Below, piece by piece: positions 39,607 through 47,352 of a stretch of 64,000 nt of DNA. The position numbers were made by a program, and so were the translations under genes. The stretch comes from an uncultured beta proteobacterium (GTDB lineage Bacteria > Pseudomonadota > Gammaproteobacteria > Burkholderiales > SG8-39), in assembly GCA_963714925.1 (NCBI GenBank), contig CAVQQK010000003.1:80186-144185 (forward strand). The letters are read 5' to 3'. Below the pieces are notes generated by a model. The model ran no database searches. It was not told where the DNA came from and saw only the letters and a list, made by a program, of their open reading frames with translations. Positions within the stretch are counted from its first letter, which is position 1, and each line of letters begins with the position of its first letter.

Positions 39607-39682
39607 GCGGGAATAGCTCAGTTGGTAGAGCGCAACCTTGCCAAGGTTGAGGTCGCGAGTTCGAGACTCGTTTCCCGCTCCA
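39607..39682 (+). tRNA. tRNA-Gly (anticodon GCC)
   Basis: Hand-folded: acceptor GCGGGAA/TTCCCGC, anticodon arm CAACC-TTGCCAA-GGTTG, T-loop TTCGAGA, encoded CCA. Confidence 0.92.
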
Positions 39683-39802
39683 GATCATTACAAGGGGAAG
39701 TCCGTGGCGCGTAGGCTCCGGCATTGTCCGTGCCCTGGCCGAAGCGGCGGCGGCTTTCCCTTTTACGTTTCCGGTGCTCGCTTAGCTTGAGCACCGCACC
39801 CC

Positions 39803-39876
39803 GGCTGGGTGGCAGAGTGGTCATGCAGCGGCCTGCAAAGCCGTGGACGCCGGTTCGATTCCGACCCCAGCCTCCA
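39803..39876 (+). tRNA. tRNA-Cys (anticodon GCA)
   Basis: Acceptor GGCTGGG/CCCAGCC, anticodon loop CTGCAAA, T-loop TTCGATT, encoded CCA. One C:A mismatch in the T-stem. Confidence 0.85.
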
Positions 39877-39894
39877 TCCCTTTTTGCGCAAATT

Positions 39895-39981
39895 GCCCGG
39901 GTGGCGTAACTGGTAGCCGCAGGGGACTTAAAATCCCCTGACCGTAAGGTCGTGTGGGTTCGAATCCCGCCCCGGGCACCA
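39895..39981 (+). tRNA. tRNA-Leu (anticodon TAA)
   Basis: 87 nt. Acceptor GCCCGGG/CCCGGGC, anticodon arm GGGGA-CTTAAAA-TCCCC, long variable arm GACC-GTAA-GGTC, encoded CCA. Confidence 0.92.
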
Positions 39982-40061
39982 ATCGACTGACACCGATTGA
40001 CTGACCGATTCGGGTGACTGATTCAGGCGACTAAATCAGGCGGCCGAATCAGGAGCGCGGC

Positions 40062-40868
40062 ATGGCGAAAACAGATCCTTCCCCAATCGAGCGTGCGGCG
40101 CGTACGCTGTTCGACGCCCATCGCAGGAAGGCAACGTTCGCGCCCTTGCCGGACGCGCTTGCGCCGCAGACCACGGAGGCGGCCTACGATATCCAGGACG
40201 ACTTCGTAGCGCTCAAGTCCGATGTGTTCGGTCCGGTGGCGGGCTGGAAGATTGCGCTCACCACGCCCCAGATGCGCGCCATGGTCGGGGTGAATGACTC
40301 GATCGGCGGCACCCTGCATAGCGGACAGATCCAGAACACGCCGGGCCGCGTGCGTGCAGCGGACTACGCGCATCTGATTGTCGAATTCGAAATCGGGGTG
40401 GCGCTGGCGGAAGACCTGCCGGCCGCCGACGCACCGTATACGCGCGAGCGCGTTGCACGGGCCGTCGGTGCCGTGATGCCGGCACTCGAAATTGCAGACG
40501 ACTGGAACGCCGACTACAAGGACCTGGCCAAGCACGCGCTGCTGATCGCTGCCGACAATGCGTGGAACGAAGGCGCGGTGCTCGGCGCCCCGATCGCCGA
40601 TTGGCGCGGGATTGACCTCGAGGCCATTCGCGGCGTGGCCACGATCAATGGCCAGGTCGTCGGCGAGGGGCAGGGGCGCGACTCGATGGGACACCCGCTC
40701 GAGGCGCTGGCATGGGTTGCCAACCATCTTGCGAAGCGCGGACATGGATTGTGGCGGGGTGCCGTGGTCATCACGGGCAGCCTGGTGACCTCGAAATTCC
40801 CGGTCGCCGGCGACGAGATCCGCTTCGAGCTCGGACCGCTGGGCGCAGTCGAGCTCAAGGTGGCGTAG
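40062..40868 (+). CDS. 2-keto-4-pentenoate hydratase-like protein (MhpD/XylJ hydratase-decarboxylase family, FAH fold)
   Basis: 268 aa with AYDIQDDFVALK, GWKIALTTP and C-terminal ITGSL, typical of the family. AGGAG sits 7 nt upstream of the ATG. Confidence 0.7.
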   Translation: MAKTDPSPIERAARTLFDAHRRKATFAPLPDALAPQTTEAAYDIQDDFVALKSDVFGPVAGWKIALTTPQMRAMVGVNDSIGGTLHSGQIQNTPGRVRAADYAHLIVEFEIGVALAEDLPAADAPYTRERVARAVGAVMPALEIADDWNADYKDLAKHALLIAADNAWNEGAVLGAPIADWRGIDLEAIRGVATINGQVVGEGQGRDSMGHPLEALAWVANHLAKRGHGLWRGAVVITGSLVTSKFPVAGDEIRFELGPLGAVELKVA

Positions 40869-40872
40869 GGCC

Positions 40873-41541
40873 GTGGCGCGCATCGGCGACAGTCTCTCGG
40901 GCAAGCGCGTCTACGTGACGCAAATCGACGAATTCATGGGACCGGAGTTGAAGGCGGTGTTCGCCGAGCACGGTGCCGAGGTGCTCGGTGCGTCCGGTGC
41001 GCGCGAGGCCGACCTGCGCGCCGCCGGCCAGGTGGACGTCCTGGTGTGCAATCTGGGCGTACCGGCGCCGTCGACGCGCGTGCACGAAGTGACCGACGAC
41101 GAGTGGCGCACGGTGTTCGCCGGCATGGTCGACCCGCTGCCGCGCCTGTTTCGTACCGTGCTGCCACAGATGCTCGAGCGGCGTGCGGGCAAGATCGTGG
41201 TCATGGGCAGTGCCACCGCCCTGCGAGGACAAAAGCGCACCTCGACTTACGCCGCCGCGCGCGGCGCACAACTGTCCTACGTCCGCGCCGTCGGCGCCGA
41301 GGTGTCGGCGCAGAACGTGCAGGTCAATCTGATTGCGCAAAACTTCGTCGAAAACCCGATGTACTACCCACCGGCCGTGCAGGCGCTGCCTGCGTTCCAG
41401 GAACGCCTGCGGCGTGAAGTGCCTGCCGGACGGCTCGGTACGGCGCGCGAGGACGCCCTGTTCGCGGTCTTTCTCGCCTCGAGCGAGGTGAGCTTCATCG
41501 CCGGGCAGGCGATTCCGTTCGCTGGCGGCTGGGTCAGCTGA
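40873..41541 (+). CDS. SDR-fold protein with halohydrin dehalogenase fingerprint (putative HHDH)
   Basis: VYVTQIDEFMG gives T-X4-F-X-G in place of TGxxxGxG. GSATALRGQKRTSTYAAARG gives S-X12-Y-X3-R (Arg instead of the SDR Lys). Further blocks align by eye with HheC as recalled. Confidence 0.6.
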   Translation: MARIGDSLSGKRVYVTQIDEFMGPELKAVFAEHGAEVLGASGAREADLRAAGQVDVLVCNLGVPAPSTRVHEVTDDEWRTVFAGMVDPLPRLFRTVLPQMLERRAGKIVVMGSATALRGQKRTSTYAAARGAQLSYVRAVGAEVSAQNVQVNLIAQNFVENPMYYPPAVQALPAFQERLRREVPAGRLGTAREDALFAVFLASSEVSFIAGQAIPFAGGWVS

Positions 41542-43009
41542 ACCCGCCGCCCGCTTCGACCGCCTTTTTCAGCTCGAATTTCTGCACCTTGCCCATCGCG
41601 GTCTTGGGCAGGCTGTCCATGAACAGCACGCGGCGCGGGTGTTTGTAGCGCGCGAGCCGGTCCTGGAACAGCGCGAGGACCCCGGCCTGGTCGATCGAAG
41701 ACCCCGCCACGCGCACGATGCAGGCGCAGGCGGCTTCGCCCCATTTGGCATCGGCAATGCCGACGACGGCCGATTCGGCGATCTCGGCGCAGTCGGCGAG
41801 CACGTTTTCCAGCTCCGCCGGATAGACATTCTCGCCGCCGGAAATGATCACGTCCTTCGATCGTCCGGCGATCCAGTAAAAGCCCTCGGCGTCGCGCCGT
41901 CCGAGGTCGCCGCTGCGAAACCAGCCCTCGACCAGGGCTTCGCGCGTCGCTTCGGGCGCGTTCCAGTAGCCGCGCATGACGTTCGGCCCGCGCACCCAGA
42001 GTTCGCCTACGACGTCGGTTGCCGCCTCGGTGCCGGCATCGTCGACGGCGACCCTGACCTCGCAGTGCAGCGCCGGCTTGCCCGCGCTGCCCAGCCTGGC
42101 CTCGGCATCCTCCTTCAGCAGGACGGTGGCGAAGGGCGCGGTTTCGGTCGAACCGTAGATCTGGCCGACCGGGACGCCGCGCGCGAGGAAGGCGCGGATC
42201 AGCGAGTCCGGCACCACCATCGATCCGGCATGGATCATGCGCAGGCAGGACAGGTCGGTCTGCGCCCATGCCGGCTGCGCGAGCACGGCCGCCATCATCG
42301 CCGGCACCAGGACGCTGAGCGAAGGCCGGTCGGCCGCGAGCGCGGCCAGCCACTGCCCCGGGTCGAAGCGTCGCAACAGGGTGACCGAGGCGCCCGCGAC
42401 GAGGACCGGCAGTGCCTGGATGTTCAGCCCGCCGACGTGGAACATGGGCAGGCTGTTGAGCGCGTGGTCGCGCTGGCCCATGTCGTGGGCGTGGATCGCG
42501 TTCCACGCGTTCCACAGCAGCGCCGCCTGCGTGAGCACGGCACCTTTCGGGCGTCCCGTCGTCCCCGAGGTGTACACGATCAGCGCATCGTCGGCGTCGC
42601 AACCGGCAATCGCTGCCTCGGGTCCGCCACCCTCGAGCACCTCGAAGCCCTGCACCGGCACATCGAGGCCCGCGGCGTGCGCGCGGAACTCGGCGTCCGC
42701 GAACAGCAGCTTCGGCGTGCAGTCGCCCAGCATGTACCGGTGCTCGGCCGCGGTGAGGCGCCAGTTGAGCGGAACGAGGATCGCGCCGAGCCGCGCGAGC
42801 GCGAGCAGGACGACGAGAATCTCGGGGCAGTTGGCGGCAAGCAGGGCGACCCGGTCGCCCCGCGCCACGCCGAGTCCGGCGAGCGCGCGGGTGGCGGACG
42901 CGATGCGTTGCCACAGCGCGCCATAGGCGATGTCCTCGCCCTCGAAGCGGAGCGCGCGCTTGGCGGGGAACTGCGCCGCGTTGCGCTCGACGATGCGCGA
43001 AAGATTCAC
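41534..43009 (-). CDS. AMP-dependent acyl-CoA synthetase/ligase
   Basis: AMP-binding signature IVYTSGTTGRPKGAVL, YGSTE, GDLGRRDAEGFYWIAGRSKD, 491 aa. Confidence 0.88.
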   Translation of the reverse strand: MNLSRIVERNAAQFPAKRALRFEGEDIAYGALWQRIASATRALAGLGVARGDRVALLAANCPEILVVLLALARLGAILVPLNWRLTAAEHRYMLGDCTPKLLFADAEFRAHAAGLDVPVQGFEVLEGGGPEAAIAGCDADDALIVYTSGTTGRPKGAVLTQAALLWNAWNAIHAHDMGQRDHALNSLPMFHVGGLNIQALPVLVAGASVTLLRRFDPGQWLAALAADRPSLSVLVPAMMAAVLAQPAWAQTDLSCLRMIHAGSMVVPDSLIRAFLARGVPVGQIYGSTETAPFATVLLKEDAEARLGSAGKPALHCEVRVAVDDAGTEAATDVVGELWVRGPNVMRGYWNAPEATREALVEGWFRSGDLGRRDAEGFYWIAGRSKDVIISGGENVYPAELENVLADCAEIAESAVVGIADAKWGEAACACIVRVAGSSIDQAGVLALFQDRLARYKHPRRVLFMDSLPKTAMGKVQKFELKKAVEAGGGFS

Positions 43010-44248
43010 TCAGTCGTCTGCCTCGTCGGGTTCGTAGAGCGCTTCGCGTCCGATGCGGTCGAGGCAGAGTTCGGCTGTCCACGGCAGCATGAGGGCGCCG
43101 CAGCGCGAATCTCGGTACAGGCGCTCGAGCGGGAGGCTTTTCAGCATCGATTGTCCGCCGCAGGTGCGGATTGCCAGACGGCACAGGTCGTTGGCGTTCT
43201 CCATCACCGTGAACTGGGTCGCGTAGGCGCGCAACCGCGCGTCCTTGGACGGATCGACCCGCGCATCGTCCAGCATGCGGAGAAAGAGGGCGCGCGTCTG
43301 CTCGAGTTTTATGTGCATCTCGGCAACGGCGATCTGCTTGGTTGGATACATGCGCCGCTTGACCGGCGGCATGCCAGGTACCTCGCCACGCAGGTAGCGG
43401 ACCGTGAACGCATAGGCTGCGACGGCAATGCCCATGTAGGTCGGCGAGAGGGTGGTGAACATATGCGGCCAGCGCGAGGCCGCCTGAAAGTAGACGCCCC
43501 GCGGCATCATCGCTGCATCGTCGCTGACGAACACGTCCTTGAAGACGAGATTGCGCGACACGGTCCCGCGCATGCCGAGCGGATCCCAATCTCCCGTGAT
43601 CTCGAGTCCGGGCGAATCGGCCGGCACCGCCAGATACAGCGTGTCGCGCATGCTGCGGTCCGGACGGTCCTCGGTACACAGCATGCCGTAGTAATTCGCA
43701 GCACCCGAGAGTGATGCGAAAATTTTCTTGCCATTGATCAACCATCCGCCATCCACCTTGGCGGCGAGGGTGCCGAATGGCGCCCTGCCTGCGGCGGCGG
43801 CACTGCCCTCTGAAAAGGGCTGTGCGTAGATGGCACCGTCCTTGACCACGCGCTCGAAGTGAATCTGGCGGTGACGCTCGTGCGCCGCCGTTTCCTCTGT
43901 CGTCAGATCGAGGTCGTCGGTCAGGATGCCCGGCCACAGCGTGGAGCAGGCGTGCATGTTGAAGGTGAGGGCCGTGGCGCCGCAGTATTTTCCGAGCGTT
44001 GCCGACACCAGAGAATAGGTCTTGAAATCCGCACCCCGGCCGCCGAATCGCTCTGGAACACACAGTCCGAGCAGACCAGCCGCGCGCAAATCGGCGTAGT
44101 TCTCGAACGGAAACGTCGCTTCCCGGTCGTAACCCGCCGCGCGCTCGGCAAATCCAGGGCCGAGCGATTCGGCAATGCCGATCAAATCGCGCTGACGATT
44201 GGTCAGCAGATAGGGTTCGCCGCAAATGGCGTAGCGTGGGTCTGGCAC
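43010..44248 (-). CDS. acyl-CoA dehydrogenase-fold flavoprotein (dehydrogenase or ACAD-fold oxygenase)
   Basis: ACAD-like N-terminal (LRAAGLLGLCVPERFGG), middle and C-terminal (ERLYRDSR) domains. The usual EGT-x-E catalytic context is not obvious. GTG 44248, preceded by GAGG and 7 nt after the upstream stop, is preferred over ORF-track start 44362, which overlaps the hydrolase by 107 nt. Confidence 0.7.
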   Translation of the reverse strand: MPDPRYAICGEPYLLTNRQRDLIGIAESLGPGFAERAAGYDREATFPFENYADLRAAGLLGLCVPERFGGRGADFKTYSLVSATLGKYCGATALTFNMHACSTLWPGILTDDLDLTTEETAAHERHRQIHFERVVKDGAIYAQPFSEGSAAAAGRAPFGTLAAKVDGGWLINGKKIFASLSGAANYYGMLCTEDRPDRSMRDTLYLAVPADSPGLEITGDWDPLGMRGTVSRNLVFKDVFVSDDAAMMPRGVYFQAASRWPHMFTTLSPTYMGIAVAAYAFTVRYLRGEVPGMPPVKRRMYPTKQIAVAEMHIKLEQTRALFLRMLDDARVDPSKDARLRAYATQFTVMENANDLCRLAIRTCGGQSMLKSLPLERLYRDSRCGALMLPWTAELCLDRIGREALYEPDEADD

Positions 44249-44255
44249 AGTGACC

Positions 44256-44999
44256 TCAAATTGAGTGGCGTCGTAAGAAGGCGAGGAGGGTGGCGTTGAA
44301 CGCCTCGGGCTGATCCATCGGCCCAAGGTGGCCGCAGCCCGCCAGAATCTCGAGTTCGGCACCGGGAATGCGGGGCGCCATGCGCTGCATGACGCTTGCC
44401 GGCGCGGTGCGGTCGTCGCTGCCTGCGACGAGCAGGGTGGGCACCCGGATGTCGGGCAGCAGGGCGCGGCGATCGAAGGTGGTGAGCAGGGCCACCGCTT
44501 TGCGGTAGGTCTCCGGCGGAACGCGCGCCATGAGGCGTTCCGCGCGCGCCAGTCCGCCGGGGTCCGAGCGGGGACCGCGCATGGTCGGCATCAGCGCGGC
44601 CGCGATATCAGACATGCTACGCCCCGCGTCGAGCGGCGCGATCCGCGCTGCGACGAACTCGCGCGCAAAGTCGCTACTGCCGCCGCCGAACGCGCTCGAG
44701 GTGAAGCAGAGCACGAGCGCGCGCACGCATTGCGGATGGCGTGCGTAGGTTTCCTGCGCGATGAAGCCGCCCATGCTGTGCCCGACCAGAACCGCCGCCT
44801 CACCGACCTCGCGCGCGATCATCCGCAGCAGCGCCGCGGCGATCCGCTCGAGATCATAGGGTTCGACCCCCGGCGCATCACCGTAGCCCGGCTGGTCCCA
44901 GGCGAGCGTCCGGTAGCCGCGCGCCGAAAAGAACGCGCACTGATCATCCCAGGCGCCATGACCGCCGCCGACCCCGTGCAGGAAAACCAGCGTGGTCAC
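44256..44999 (-). CDS. alpha/beta-fold hydrolase
   Basis: 247 aa with the oxyanion FLHGVGG, nucleophile elbow GHSMGG and C-terminal GCGHLGPMDQPE (His). Confidence 0.85.
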   Translation of the reverse strand: MTTLVFLHGVGGGHGAWDDQCAFFSARGYRTLAWDQPGYGDAPGVEPYDLERIAAALLRMIAREVGEAAVLVGHSMGGFIAQETYARHPQCVRALVLCFTSSAFGGGSSDFAREFVAARIAPLDAGRSMSDIAAALMPTMRGPRSDPGGLARAERLMARVPPETYRKAVALLTTFDRRALLPDIRVPTLLVAGSDDRTAPASVMQRMAPRIPGAELEILAGCGHLGPMDQPEAFNATLLAFLRRHSI

Positions 45000-46042
45000 G
45001 CGAGTTCGTTCTGCAGTTGGCCGTCGGCGACGATCGTGCGGCCGTCTAGGTTCAGCGTGCAGTGGCGGAATGGCAGGTCGAAGTGTCCGAGCGTGTAGCG
45101 TCCCGCAACTTCGTTTGCGCCGGTGGAATAGAGAAAATTTCCGGCGAACGCGCGCTGTTCTGTGCCATTGACGTCGCGGCGGTCGTACATGACGAGCGCA
45201 TCCCAGCGCGCACGGGGATTCATGCCCCAGCCGACGTGCGATACCGCATAGGCCTCGCGATCGCCCCAGGCGGCAAAGTACTCGCGCATCAGCTCCGCAT
45301 CGAGCGATTGCCCCTCGATGCGCGTTACGTAATCGGATTCAACCACCAGCCGAACCGGCGATTCGACGTAACGTTTGAAGGTCAGATTGAGGTCGCCCGG
45401 CGCCATCACGAGGGTCCCGTCCACACTGCCGGCGGGCGGAAAGCACAGGCATAAGCCACCCGGCCAGTGCGACAGCGTGCCCGGCTTTTCCGTGTAGCCC
45501 CAGACGCCCCCCACGCGGGCACCCGCGACGTTGATCGTGAGATCCGTGCCTGCGGGCGAGCTCACCGTCAGGCGCTTCGCGGCACGCAGCATGCGCATGG
45601 CCGCCCTCACCTTCTCTTCGTCGACGGGGGAGGGGGCGAGGCGTTCGAGCACCTCCGGATGCTCATTCGAGATGTATAGAACGCGCGCACCGCCCTGCAG
45701 GATCTGCGGCAACTCCGGCGCGTGCATGAGCCCTTCGACCGTGCAATCGGCTACGAACGTGCTCGCGGCAAGTGCCTGGAGCACCGCGCCCATGTCAGTC
45801 AGCGCGACCGACGCGCCGGTGGATCGAATCGGGACGGGCGCCGTCTGCCGTGGCGTGGGCACGATGACGTGAAAAGGCCTGGCGCCGATTCGGGCGAGTC
45901 CGAGTTCGGCCAGCTGAACGTTCAGCGGCCTCGATTGGGACTCTGATAGCACCGCGCAAACGTCGCCCGCGCCCACTTTGCAACGCGCGAACACGTCAGC
46001 AAAGAGGTCGATCCATTTGGCTTCGATTCGGTCGTTGATCAT
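44996..46042 (-). CDS. NicX-like 2,5-dihydroxypyridine 5,6-dioxygenase family protein (aminopeptidase-T/M29 fold)
   Basis: Blocks SHWPGG, GTLVMAPGDLNLTFKRY, SHVGWGMNPRARW, RAFAGNFLYSTG and GHFDLPF parallel P. putida NicX as recalled. That includes the His...His-x-Asp positions used for Fe(II). ATG 46042 has GGAG upstream. Confidence 0.55.
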   Translation of the reverse strand: MINDRIEAKWIDLFADVFARCKVGAGDVCAVLSESQSRPLNVQLAELGLARIGARPFHVIVPTPRQTAPVPIRSTGASVALTDMGAVLQALAASTFVADCTVEGLMHAPELPQILQGGARVLYISNEHPEVLERLAPSPVDEEKVRAAMRMLRAAKRLTVSSPAGTDLTINVAGARVGGVWGYTEKPGTLSHWPGGLCLCFPPAGSVDGTLVMAPGDLNLTFKRYVESPVRLVVESDYVTRIEGQSLDAELMREYFAAWGDREAYAVSHVGWGMNPRARWDALVMYDRRDVNGTEQRAFAGNFLYSTGANEVAGRYTLGHFDLPFRHCTLNLDGRTIVADGQLQNELA

Positions 46043-46137
46043 GAGCACTCCGGGCAGCAGGGCGTATTCATACCGCAAAAAAATGCGCTGCGCAGAAAGC
46101 GCATGAGCGATGACGTAATCCCGTAAAATGAAATGCG

Positions 46138-46701: not shown

Positions 46702-47352
46702 CTATTCCACTGCCCCTGAACGCACCAGGAGCACCTCTAGCTCCTTCATGTCCCTCATACGGGCGATCTTCAGCGCGGTCTGCCCCGACCCTGATCTGTA
46801 ATTGACGTCCGGGTCCCGGTACAGGATGACTTTCGCTACCGCCGAATTTCCGTTCCTCGCGGCCAGCATCAACGCCGTATAGGTGTTGGGTGCCACGGCG
46901 TCCTTGTTGGCGCCACGATCGAGCAGCAGTTTCGCCACGCCGGCATGCCCGGCAAACGCCGCGTAATGCAGCGGTGCCCATCCCTGTTTTGGATTGAGCT
47001 CCCCCCCCGCGTCCAACAGGCGGCGCACGACGCTTTCGTCGCCCTTCAGGCAGGCCATCAACAGCGCGGTATCGCCAAACGAGGTGCGTTGACCCACATT
47101 GGCCCGACGCGCAATCAACAGGGCGACAATCTTGTCGCTTCCCTGGCGGGCCGCAATCATCAGGATCGAGTTGCCTTTCGAGTCCGTCGTATTCGGATCC
47201 ACCCCTTGGTTCAGGAGCTTGCGGACCGCATCGATATCATCGGCTTCCACAGCGCTAAAAATCTTTTCGTACGAAGATTCAGATGACGCCTCTGTAAAAG
47301 CAAAAATACACATAACTACAGATAGATATAAGATGTATTTCATATTTAACAT
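46702..47352 (-). CDS. secreted ankyrin-repeat protein
   Basis: Signal peptide MLNMKYILYLSVVMCIFAFTEASS, then about 5-6 ANK repeats (GNSILMIAARQG, GDTALLMACLKG, WAPLHYAAFAGH, YTALMLAARNGN, GQTALKIA). The first ~25 codons are AT-rich and the rest is GC-rich. The alternative start is 47343. Confidence 0.85.
   Translation of the reverse strand: MLNMKYILYLSVVMCIFAFTEASSESSYEKIFSAVEADDIDAVRKLLNQGVDPNTTDSKGNSILMIAARQGSDKIVALLIARRANVGQRTSFGDTALLMACLKGDESVVRRLLDAGGELNPKQGWAPLHYAAFAGHAGVAKLLLDRGANKDAVAPNTYTALMLAARNGNSAVAKVILYRDPDVNYRSGSGQTALKIARMRDMKELEVLLVRSGAVE

Follow-up and report, generated by a model that had tools for sequence, protein, structure and literature searches.

The DNA analysed here, hereafter the window, is a stretch of 64,000 nucleotides (positions 80,186 to 144,185 of contig CAVQQK010000003.1, assembly GCA_963714925.1) from an uncultured beta proteobacterium of the SG8-39 lineage of Burkholderiales, and the locus in question is a group of six genes between a tRNA block and a DUF1178 gene (Table 1). 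Four of them, which encode a NicX-like dioxygenase, an alpha/beta hydrolase, a flavoprotein of the acyl-CoA dehydrogenase (ACAD) fold and a CoA ligase, form a tightly packed minus-strand operon, with a 4-nt overlap between the first two genes, a 7-nt gap before the ACAD-fold gene and a 0-nt gap before the ligase gene. The other two, for an MhpD-like protein and a halohydrin dehalogenase (HHDH), are read from the plus strand, and the HHDH and ligase genes are convergent with an 8-nt overlap. A preliminary description of this locus, made from the sequence alone, gave these places and spacings correctly except for two starts that have been trimmed against database forms: the NicX-like gene had been extended to an upstream TTG at 46078, whereas the database form (P0001), identical to the 348-aa protein, starts at 46042, and the 412-aa form of the ACAD-fold protein is 100% identical to database protein P0392. 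Its family assignments also hold, judging from the best structural matches (NicX-like to 7cn3, E 3e-60; HHDH-like to 7b73, E 1e-75; MhpD-like to 2wqt, E 3e-24). As it had remarked, the block lacks an electron-transfer partner, and no regulator, transporter, reductase or integrase is encoded among the open reading frames (ORFs) inside it; a full-text literature search found no publication on this gene combination and, in line with the earlier supposition, no pathway that it matches.

Comparison with related loci reduces these six genes to an invariant core of three, which encode a probable ACAD-fold flavin-dependent oxygenase, a NicX-family dioxygenase and an alpha/beta serine hydrolase, and which are usually joined by the ligase and the MhpD-like protein. 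We consider it rather likely that this core is a conserved hydroxylase/ring-cleavage/hydrolase module and not an island, and that it probably degrades an aromatic or N-heteroaromatic acid.

Table 1. Predicted genes and other features of the catabolic locus (feature, positions in the window, strand, remark)
tRNA-Leu(taa), end of the pgsA tRNA-Gly/Cys/Leu block	39895-39981	+	cluster boundary; ARAGORN, Rfam
MhpD-like FAH-superfamily protein, hydratase/decarboxylase branch, 268 aa	40062-40868	+	converges on operon
HheD-type halohydrin dehalogenase (short-chain dehydrogenase/reductase, SDR, fold), 222 aa	40873-41541	+	downstream of MhpD-like gene
AMP-forming acyl/aryl-CoA ligase, 491 aa	41534-43009	-	start abuts ACAD-fold stop codon
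ACAD-fold flavoprotein, 412 aa	43010-44248	-	ORF reaches 44362; Met at 44248 is the database form
Alpha/beta-fold serine hydrolase, GHSMGG, 247 aa	44256-44999	-	candidate thioesterase or deformylase
NicX-family Fe(II) ring-cleavage dioxygenase, 348 aa	44996-46042	-	first operon gene
Divergent intergenic region, NicX-like/DUF1178, 95 nt	46043-46137	.	presumed operon promoter

When one genome per species was scanned, a relative of the NicX-like protein turned up in 425. The 80 highest-ranking of these, all of them metagenome-assembled genomes (MAGs) labelled nearly always as Burkholderiales, Betaproteobacteria or plain Proteobacteria (SG8_39-like), together with two loci from a protein look-up, make up a comparison set of 82 distinct loci, and the gene counts given for relatives refer to those loci with sufficient sequence. 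The order mltG, tmk, holB, (ankyrin), DUF1178, NicX-like, hydrolase, ACAD-fold, (ligase), MhpD-like ... tRNA-Leu/Cys/Gly, pgsA, uvrC is conserved among them, and each of 14 related loci tested has the three tRNAs next to pgsA. The ACAD-fold gene is present in 73 of 73 loci and the hydrolase gene in 75 of 77, with DUF1178 upstream in 65 of 69; of 59 loci, 48 have a ligase gene directly adjoining that for the ACAD-fold protein and 52 have one somewhere in the flank, and the MhpD-like gene is adjacent in 32 and within the flank in 41 of the same number. Median identities to the window proteins are 81% for the NicX-like protein and 82% for the ACAD-fold protein (the former slightly inflated by the selection of loci through NicX similarity, the latter unaffected), compared with 76% for pgsA, 69% for uvrC, 67% for mltG, 64% for tmk and 52% for holB. 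Since the operon occupies the same place in every assessable relative, it is ancestral to the clade, and the minus-strand operon is thus a vertically inherited catabolic unit of an uncultured Burkholderiales lineage. For a peripheral catabolic function, this degree of conservation is uncommon, and it speaks for constant use.

This distribution bears directly on the earlier suggestion that the block sits where islands insert, for which the 73 of 73 loci with the operon at the same position leave little room. Acquisition of the block by horizontal transfer, as an island integrated 3′ of tRNA-Leu, is very improbable: although it directly follows the tRNA cluster, 1-5 kb of variable genes separate tRNA-Leu from the MhpD-like gene in relatives and the HHDH gene is patchy, the operon does not move between assessable loci, its divergence tracks that of the flanking housekeeping genes, and there is neither an integrase, nor a direct repeat of the tRNA 3′ end, nor a break in G+C content. 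As had already been noted, no integrase is present and the G+C content is host-like, the block showing 0.64-0.72 and its flanks 0.60-0.66, which is a slight rise without a compositional break. What varies is the DNA from tRNA-Leu to the MhpD-like gene, outside the operon; insertion-site-like behaviour is confined to this tRNA-proximal spacer, and the HHDH gene alone behaves like an insertion. Nor do the six genes form one unit as had been proposed, the HHDH gene being found in one sub-clade only and the MhpD-like gene being adjacent at little more than half of the loci.

The same core recurs in other lineages. With tblastn, NicX-like and ACAD-fold genes of 51-53% identity were found side by side on plasmids of Ensifer adhaerens, Aminobacter aminovorans, Shinella and Sinorhizobium, and a protein look-up revealed the triad also in Sulfitobacter, Mesorhizobium, a Granulosicoccus MAG and marine (Tara) contigs. 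The invariant unit of the alphaproteobacterial versions comprises the NicX-like gene, the ACAD-fold gene, an alpha/beta hydrolase gene fused to an SRPBCC domain and a TetR gene; frequent additions are a glutamine-synthetase-like ligase, a flavin reductase of the HpaC/RutF type and a transporter (APC or Tct). Several clusters include, upstream, a further set of genes under GntR control. It encodes a bicupin protein similar to gentisate or 5-aminosalicylate 1,2-dioxygenase, a protein of the FAH family, a hydrolase of the nitrilase superfamily, and either an Amdase/maleate-isomerase-like protein or the reductase. FAH-family genes accompany both the beta- and the alphaproteobacterial versions. In Mesorhizobium, a gene of the benzoate-CoA-ligase family (367 bits against a cut-off of 375 bits) lies five genes downstream of the triad, and in L175 a 77%-identical orthologue of it stands directly upstream of the triad and is followed by a 4HBT-type thioesterase gene. 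These two ligases are only ~30% identical to the beta-clade ligase, and the presence of non-orthologous ligases beside the triad implies independent recruitment, from which it can be argued that thioester formation belongs to the pathway. The type of the alphaproteobacterial ligase, as judged by its family, points to an aromatic-acid substrate, and the SRPBCC ligand-binding domain on the hydrolase is suggestive of an aromatic rather than a small aliphatic ligand.

Two observations on these clusters may be added. In Mesorhizobium (L088, 15700-16866) and Aminobacter (L085, 17701-18879), the flavin reductase of the cluster and a LysR-type substrate-binding domain form a single protein of 388-392 aa with no obvious helix-turn-helix, an odd arrangement that might couple ligand sensing to flavin reduction. 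On a Tara contig (L173/L174, 1-8112), the triad lies beside a set of N-methylglutamate-pathway genes (GmaS-like, MgsABC-like, FAD oxidase) and genes for bacterial-microcompartment shell proteins (BMC, EutN), neighbours that are probably coincidental.

The NicX-like protein aligns with NicX of Pseudomonas putida (7cn3) over residues 22-354 (E 3.3e-60) and is 37% identical to it, and its database homologues carry PF26233 (NicX). In NicX, Fe(II) is bound by His265, Ser302, His318 and Asp320, and Glu177 forms hydrogen bonds with the C2-oxygen and the ring N-H of 2,5-dihydroxypyridine (DHP), which is held in place by a His105-Glu177-His189 hydrogen-bond network; the enzyme was reported to accept 2,5-DHP only (PMC7910607). 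All four iron ligands are retained in the window protein as H269, S306, H320 and D322, which are invariant also in beta- and alpha-clade homologues, and R297, H192 and H107, likewise invariant, align with R293, H189 and H105 of NicX. However, the position of the DHP-binding Glu177 is occupied by V180 (the beta clade has Val here and the alpha clade Thr), which follows a Gly-Gly pair (G178-G179), and Glu308 of NicX is not kept in multiple alignments. Among 258 family representatives (clustered at 50% identity, E<1e-30), Glu177 is confined to a canonical group that includes nic-cluster enzymes, being present in P. putida NicX, in both of the NicX proteins examined from nic clusters and in several members of that group, and the groups outside it have Gln or small residues at this position. 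The protein is a genuine NicX-family member and a credible iron dioxygenase and, as all Fe(II) ligands are kept but Glu177 is lost, its substrate is probably other than plain 2,5-DHP; the loss of this Glu would suit an anionic, carboxylated substrate, although this is suggestive at most. The window encodes no orthologue of NicC, NicD, NicF or NicE, which in true nic clusters (L091, L092) stand in the order nicC-E-D-X-F.

Homologues of this protein are named 'peptidase M29' in NCBI records, which would favour the view that it is an M29-type peptidase and that the genes are functionally unrelated neighbours. This view is hardly credible, considering that a Pfam search at E<=10 gave no family at all, Peptidase_M29 included, that the NicX-type His/Ser/His/Asp Fe(II) site is intact, and that the triad is kept as a unit across Beta-, Alpha- and Gammaproteobacteria in differing surroundings, which already contradicts it. 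The presence of the metal ligands and the absence of grouping with M29 aminopeptidases had been singled out beforehand as the check on the NicX assignment, which these results settle in its favour. 'Peptidase M29' and 'acyl-CoA dehydrogenase family protein' are misleading names for these genes.

The second core protein has the three-domain ACAD fold, with matches to Pfam Acyl-CoA_dh_N, _M, _1 and _2, but neither of the positions of the catalytic Glu in acyl-CoA dehydrogenases is occupied by this residue. Leu388 is found at the position of the SCAD/MCAD catalytic Glu ('YEGT'), where local SCAD alignments end just before the motif, and Phe264 is found at the IVD/LCAD-type position in helix G. 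Leu388 lies in the near-invariant motif YRDSRCGALMLPW; YRDSRCGALMLP(W/Y/F)T is kept almost without change in beta- and alphaproteobacterial homologues and differs at a few positions in a homologue from Dolichospermum. The closest PDB entries are 5z8t and 5gj7 (E 1e-40, ~30% identity), of which 5z8t was deposited under the title 'Flavin-containing monooxygenase'; no publication behind either entry was found. Foldseek with a low-confidence AlphaFold model, which was used for fold-level ranking alone, likewise matched ACAD-fold structures. In six of eight distinct alpha- and gammaproteobacterial contexts, homologues of 52-54% identity adjoin an HpaC/RutF-type flavin reductase, the exceptions being the Tara contig L173/L174 and the short contig L176. 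Because the only plausible client of this reductase is the ACAD-fold protein, which also lacks the catalytic Glu, the latter would be the oxygenase half of a two-component flavin monooxygenase. Hence, the protein is probably an oxygenase component and not a dehydrogenase, and the dehydrogenase function that had been considered for it is disfavoured by the vacant Glu positions and the reductase company of its homologues.

In these respects the protein resembles the group D monooxygenases of the ACAD fold (DszC/TdsC, HsaA, SfnB, nitrososynthases and the C2 component of p-hydroxyphenylacetate hydroxylase), with which it shares the fold without the catalytic Glu, the HpaC/RutF-type reductase beside its homologues and a closest solved relative deposited as a flavin-containing monooxygenase. 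It differs from them in being only 19-30% identical to any solved member, in having no reductase gene in the window and in its tight coupling to a ligase gene, which suggests a CoA-bound substrate, something that would be unusual for the group.

Two homologues occur in unexpected settings. A 59%-identical ACAD-fold homologue stands alone on a cyanobacterial conjugative plasmid of Dolichospermum sp. DET69 (CP070234; L086, 11989-13236), flanked by XisH/XisI and transposase genes and with no annotated NicX-like or hydrolase gene in the 25 kb around it. A homologue of 84% identity (P0462), encoded on a contig of 669 kb, bears the label 'unnamed protein product [Phaeothamnion confervicola]' and almost certainly represents a Burkholderiales contaminant or associate in the assembly of this eukaryotic alga.

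The hydrolase matches Pfam Abhydrolase_6 and Abhydrolase_1 and, weakly, Thioesterase. Its GHSMGG motif contains Ser75, and His224 and an Asp at 195/196 align with the other members of a Ser-Asp-His triad. The best NCBIfam models are those of PcaD-type enol-lactonases, all of them under their cut-offs, and the protein resembles PcaD-type lactonases and esterases more than meta-cleavage product (MCP) hydrolases. Similarity to NicD of the nic clusters L091 and L092 is limited to partial alignments with 27-34% identity (E ~1e-4), although the GHSMGG nucleophile motif is shared, and the orthology to NicD that a NicD-type deformylase would call for is therefore not seen; to the hydrolase domain of the alphaproteobacterial clusters, the protein is 33-34% identical over its full length.

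Both accessory proteins of the core belong to well-known families. The ligase consists of AMP-binding and AMP-binding_C domains, and its best PDB match is feruloyl-CoA synthetase (8wev/8weu, E 9e-103); throughout the beta clade, the ligase gene begins right at the stop codon of the ACAD-fold gene. The MhpD-like protein has an FAA_hydrolase domain and matches MhpD (2wqt/1sv6) with an E-value of 2.7e-24, and its K63, E108, E110 and E143 align with the Lys and the three Glu of MhpD, which places it in the MhpD/HpcG/NahK branch; from the literature on HpcG and NahK, we take this Lys and the Glu-x-Glu ... Glu metal site to be functional features of that branch. However, its scores against the NCBIfam models MhpD, DmpE, HpaH and DmpH reach only 94-114 bits, compared to equivalog cut-offs of 350-409 bits (for PRK11342, 113.5 bits against 350), and it is accordingly no MhpD equivalog.

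Gene content, conservation, active-site residues and the co-occurrence with reductase and ligase genes are direct observations; from them, we infer a CoA-assisted order of steps, with an aromatic or N-heteroaromatic substrate and a thioesterase role of the hydrolase, to which we give tentative credence, somewhat short of even. The ligase would first activate the substrate, an aromatic or N-heteroaromatic carboxylic acid, by forming a CoA thioester. The ACAD-fold protein, whose fold is built to hold acyl-CoA, would then use reduced flavin to hydroxylate the ring on the thioester and yield a para-diol or hydroxypyridone-type ring, the reduced flavin being supplied by the dedicated reductase in the alphaproteobacterial versions and, here, by a reductase encoded elsewhere. 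In a third step, the hydrolase might free the diol acid as a thioesterase, as the 4HBT thioesterase might do in L175, or it might alternatively act after cleavage by removing a formyl or acyl group in the manner of NicD. The NicX-like enzyme would cleave the ring beside the hydroxyl-bearing carbon, and the MhpD-like or FAH-family enzyme would finally process an unsaturated oxo-acid. A CoA-mediated para-hydroxylation is known from the salicylyl-CoA/gentisyl-CoA route to gentisate, and a gentisyl-CoA thioesterase has been described in Bacillus halodurans (PMC11335346, PMC516016). This CoA-assisted route is preferred here because it makes use of all five conserved genes. Nicotinate, picolinate, dipicolinate, homarine, aminobenzoates and 4-aminophenol were considered as substrates, but the evidence cannot discriminate between them and none is asserted.

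Several findings weigh against the CoA-assisted route. Seven or eight beta-clade loci (L001, L029, L040, L061, L080-L082) have an intact and highly conserved triad without a ligase gene, L027 retains only a C-terminal ligase remnant next to intact NicX-like, hydrolase and ACAD-fold genes, and in most alphaproteobacterial contexts a ligase-family gene is missing from the neighbourhood, so that the enzyme may not be essential or may belong to a side branch. The MhpD-like gene adjoins the operon at no more than 32 of 59 loci. A flavin reductase gene was found neither in the 64-kb window nor in the beta-clade flanks. The AlphaFold model of the ACAD-fold protein reached a pLDDT of 68.8 (from a shallow alignment with 73-100% identity), which is too poor for pocket analysis, and we know of no description of an ACAD-fold two-component oxygenase that acts on an aryl-CoA. 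Finally, the hydrolase could equally well be a NicD-like deformylase. Taken as a whole, the explanation that joins a conserved module to a CoA-assisted route receives a compromise grade from us, evenly poised between acceptance and doubt. In the flank of L027 (12747-14848), the ligase remnant is followed by an enoyl-CoA hydratase gene and a Glyoxalase_3-domain gene.

The persistence of the triad without a ligase at several loci speaks for the main rival, a free-substrate hydroxypyridine pathway of the maleamate type, which we regard as possible though doubtful. Here, the ACAD-fold two-component monooxygenase would hydroxylate a free hydroxypyridine or pyridone to a 2,5-dihydroxypyridine-like diol, the NicX-like enzyme would convert it to an N-formyl- or N-acyl-maleamate, a NicD-like deformylation would follow, and the ligase and MhpD-like enzyme would act downstream or in a side branch. 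True nic clusters, with NicX and NicD, canonically pair a NicX-type enzyme and an alpha/beta hydrolase in this way, homologous triads adjoin a flavin reductase, and the clusters of Mesorhizobium and Aminobacter add a nitrilase-superfamily hydrolase, and that of Mesorhizobium also an Amdase/maleate-isomerase-like gene, as possible substitutes for NicF and NicE. On the other hand, the replacement of the DHP-binding Glu177 by Val or Thr, together with the loss of Glu308, and the absence of NicD orthology argue against such a pathway, the beta-clade loci encode neither amidase nor isomerase, and the recurrent ligases of aromatic-acid type and the 4HBT thioesterase would be left unexplained.

A comparison with the nic/hpo/pic maleamate pathways themselves leads to a similar picture. 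The locus shares with them a NicX-family dioxygenase with a complete His265/Ser302/His318/Asp320 site, which is encoded beside an alpha/beta serine hydrolase and preceded by a flavin hydroxylase, with an overall logic of hydroxylation, cleavage and hydrolysis. It differs from them in that its hydroxylase has the ACAD fold (group D, two-component) and is not a class A flavoprotein such as NicC/HspB, that Glu177 is Val and Glu308 is not kept, that the hydrolase is no orthologue of NicD (Nfo), that NicF and NicE are missing from the lineage, and that a CoA ligase and an MhpD-like enzyme are attached.

The hybrid route that had been put forward for this locus, in which ring cleavage and deformylation are followed by CoA activation, a true dehydrogenation and an MhpD-like hydration, possibly of a halogenated substrate and with the dehalogenase involved, appears improbable. 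It would account for the gene order and the tight coupling of the ACAD-fold and ligase genes, the best NCBIfam matches of the ACAD-fold protein are CoA-using members (FadE16, acryloyl-CoA reductase and 3-sulfinopropanoyl-CoA desulfinase), and an enoyl-CoA hydratase gene stands next to the ligase remnant in L027. It has nevertheless been weakened by the two unoccupied catalytic Glu positions, the flavin reductases that accompany the homologues, the benzoate-CoA-ligase family of the alphaproteobacterial ligase, which implies aromatic substrates, and the patchy HHDH gene, which is missing from most of the clade; moreover, MhpD-type enzymes use free 2-oxo acids and not CoA esters.

Two further known systems resemble the CoA-assisted route in part. 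The CoA route to gentisate also combines a ligase, a flavin hydroxylase, a hydrolase or thioesterase, a dioxygenase for para-diol-type rings and an FAH-superfamily enzyme, and in one alphaproteobacterial version of the module a 4HBT thioesterase gene adjoins the ligase gene. The module, however, differs in every protein family, with an ACAD-fold hydroxylase in place of a class A hydroxylase, a NicX-fold dioxygenase in place of a bicupin one, and an alpha/beta hydrolase instead of, or besides, a hotdog thioesterase such as the gentisyl-CoA thioesterase BH1999, and its order of steps is a proposed one. With the meta-cleavage branch of mhp type (MhpA, MhpB, MhpC/XylF and MhpD/XylJ), the locus has in common a hydroxylase, a dioxygenase, an alpha/beta hydrolase and an MhpD-type hydratase with the Lys and the three metal-binding Glu. 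In contrast to that branch, its hydroxylase and dioxygenase come from unrelated families, the MhpD-like protein falls far under the equivalog cut-offs, there is neither an aldolase nor an acylating dehydrogenase, and the hydratase gene is on the opposite strand and adjacent in about half of the loci. The locus thus works like the nic/hpo, gentisate-via-CoA and mhp routes but is a member of none of them, and the module can be seen as a variation on the familiar logic of aromatic catabolism.

The module has spread to soil and sediment Burkholderiales MAGs, marine Rhodobacterales and rhizobia, with thousands of database sequences and at least 8000 candidates per search for the module proteins. 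Being so common and widespread, it probably serves a widespread natural aromatic or heteroaromatic compound and not a niche pollutant. A bolder proposal, which we advance with considerable doubt, is that the triad defines a widespread and hitherto undescribed pathway, in which the ACAD-fold enzyme hydroxylates an aryl- or heteroaryl-CoA and the NicX-family enzyme without Glu177 cleaves a substrate other than 2,5-DHP, for example a carboxylated hydroxypyridone or a para-aminophenol or para-diol acid. If this were true, group D monooxygenases would gain aryl- and heteroaryl-CoA as a class of substrates new to them, the NicX family would acquire a second specificity for the first time, and the strong conservation would point to an abundant natural substrate. 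The combination of such a dioxygenase with an ACAD-fold hydroxylase that possibly acts on CoA esters is not described in the accessible literature, and, considering that the sister clade keeps the iron site in a changed pocket, a substrate assignment would extend the known chemistry of the NicX family. The existence of cultured carriers (Ensifer adhaerens, Aminobacter aminovorans, Mesorhizobium and Sulfitobacter) makes these proposals directly testable.

The HHDH gene stands apart from the module. Its product matches HheD2 (7b73, E 1.1e-75) and HheD8-M3 (8xxb, E 2.5e-74), and these HheD matches rank above HheB (1.5e-52) and every FabG-type reductase; the identities of 7b73 and 8xxb were confirmed from the literature (PMC9629495, PMC11782660). 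The protein contains T16-x4-F21-x-G23, the nucleophile-pocket motif that stands in place of the Rossmann glycine motif in HHDHs, and the catalytic triad S113-x12-Y126-x3-R130, corresponding to the S117-Y130-R134 triad of HheD8 (PMC11782660), and neither the Rossmann glycine motif TGxxxGxG nor YxxxK was found in its sequence. Thus the HHDH assignment made earlier stands on both motifs and homology, and the protein is, by all its sequence features, a genuine HheD-type enzyme. It shares with the D-type dehalogenases HheD2 and HheD8 a strong full-length similarity, the T-x4-F-x-G motif, the Ser-Tyr-Arg triad and the lack of an NAD(P)-binding glycine motif; what sets it apart is the position of its gene downstream of an MhpD-like gene within a conserved catabolic locus.

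The neighbourhoods of HHDH genes were assessed with tblastn (80 metagenomic loci), a clustering of longest ORFs having been discarded for spurious ORFs in high-G+C DNA. Only L004, L093-L101 and L152, a sub-clade that includes SG8_39 and in which the HHDH proteins are at least 85% identical, have an HHDH gene flanked by the MhpD-like gene and the ligase gene, and remoter HheD homologues (<=78% identity) have unrelated surroundings. No evidence was found that ties the dehalogenase to the pathway. It is best seen as a recent passenger that was added later in one sub-clade, where it is probably co-transcribed with the MhpD-like gene. In addition, on two short and unrelated metagenomic contigs (L126 and L151), an MhpD-like gene of 44-46% identity lies just upstream of an HheD homologue.

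With regard to regulation, the lack of a regulator holds for this genome only and is not a family trait as the earlier view might suggest, since in 12-14 relatives DUF1178 and the NicX-like gene are separated by a divergently transcribed MarR gene. The MarR regulator comprises 161 aa (L015, 9476-9961; also in L008, L010, L019, L020, L025, L036, L042, L045, L047, L054 and L076), and a conserved palindromic motif, TTTCATTGAC...ATGAA...TTCAT (TTTCATTGAC..ATGAAnTTTCAT..AATACGATAG), adjoins its gene; the alphaproteobacterial versions carry TetR instead. In the window, the MarR gene is absent and the intergenic region measures only 95 nt. A -10-like box, TTTTGCGGTATGAATAC, lies ~25 nt before the start codon of the NicX-like gene and is common to L004-L006. 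On the minus strand, a terminator-like hairpin with a T-run (46083-46104) is located ~40 nt upstream of the same start codon and is not kept in L004-L006. A riboswitch or attenuator leader was considered and rejected, as an Rfam search of the region upstream of the NicX-like gene found nothing, the hairpin is unconserved in the nearest relatives, and it lies upstream of the conserved -10-like box.

The DNA on the tRNA side of the locus is more variable. The tRNA-Gly, -Cys and -Leu genes occupy 39607-39981, and the 80-nt spacer between tRNA-Leu and the MhpD-like start contains (39977-40052) two short tandem repeats of 13-14 nt and an imperfect 20-nt inverted repeat (80% complementary), which may be a tRNA-operon terminator or an operator; in the nearest relative (L004), this spacer measures 32 nt only. 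In L001 (14033-18865) and L003 (15310-20235), the same interval holds a signalling/partner-switching module of ~5 kb, composed of STAS, a metallo-beta-lactamase-fold protein, a CHASE2-SpoIIE phosphatase, OmpA, FecR and an anti-sigma kinase of the HATPase_c_2 family, and such STAS/SpoIIE modules are common in relatives and absent from the window. Genes inserted between the operon and the MhpD-like gene in relatives include an acyl-ACP synthetase/acyltransferase fusion, 5-oxoprolinase subunits, an enoyl-CoA hydratase and a CHASE2-SpoIIE protein; they are heterogeneous and give no consistent functional hint.

On the other side of the locus, DUF1178 was considered as a possible member of the pathway and rejected, its linkage being part of the holB-side housekeeping synteny and the gene being absent from the alphaproteobacterial clusters. 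A gene for an ankyrin-repeat protein of 216 aa with a hydrophobic N-terminus (46702-47352) coincides with the only marked dip in G+C content of the region (0.53-0.55); its position is kept in 40 relatives, and it evolves fast, with a median identity of 48%.

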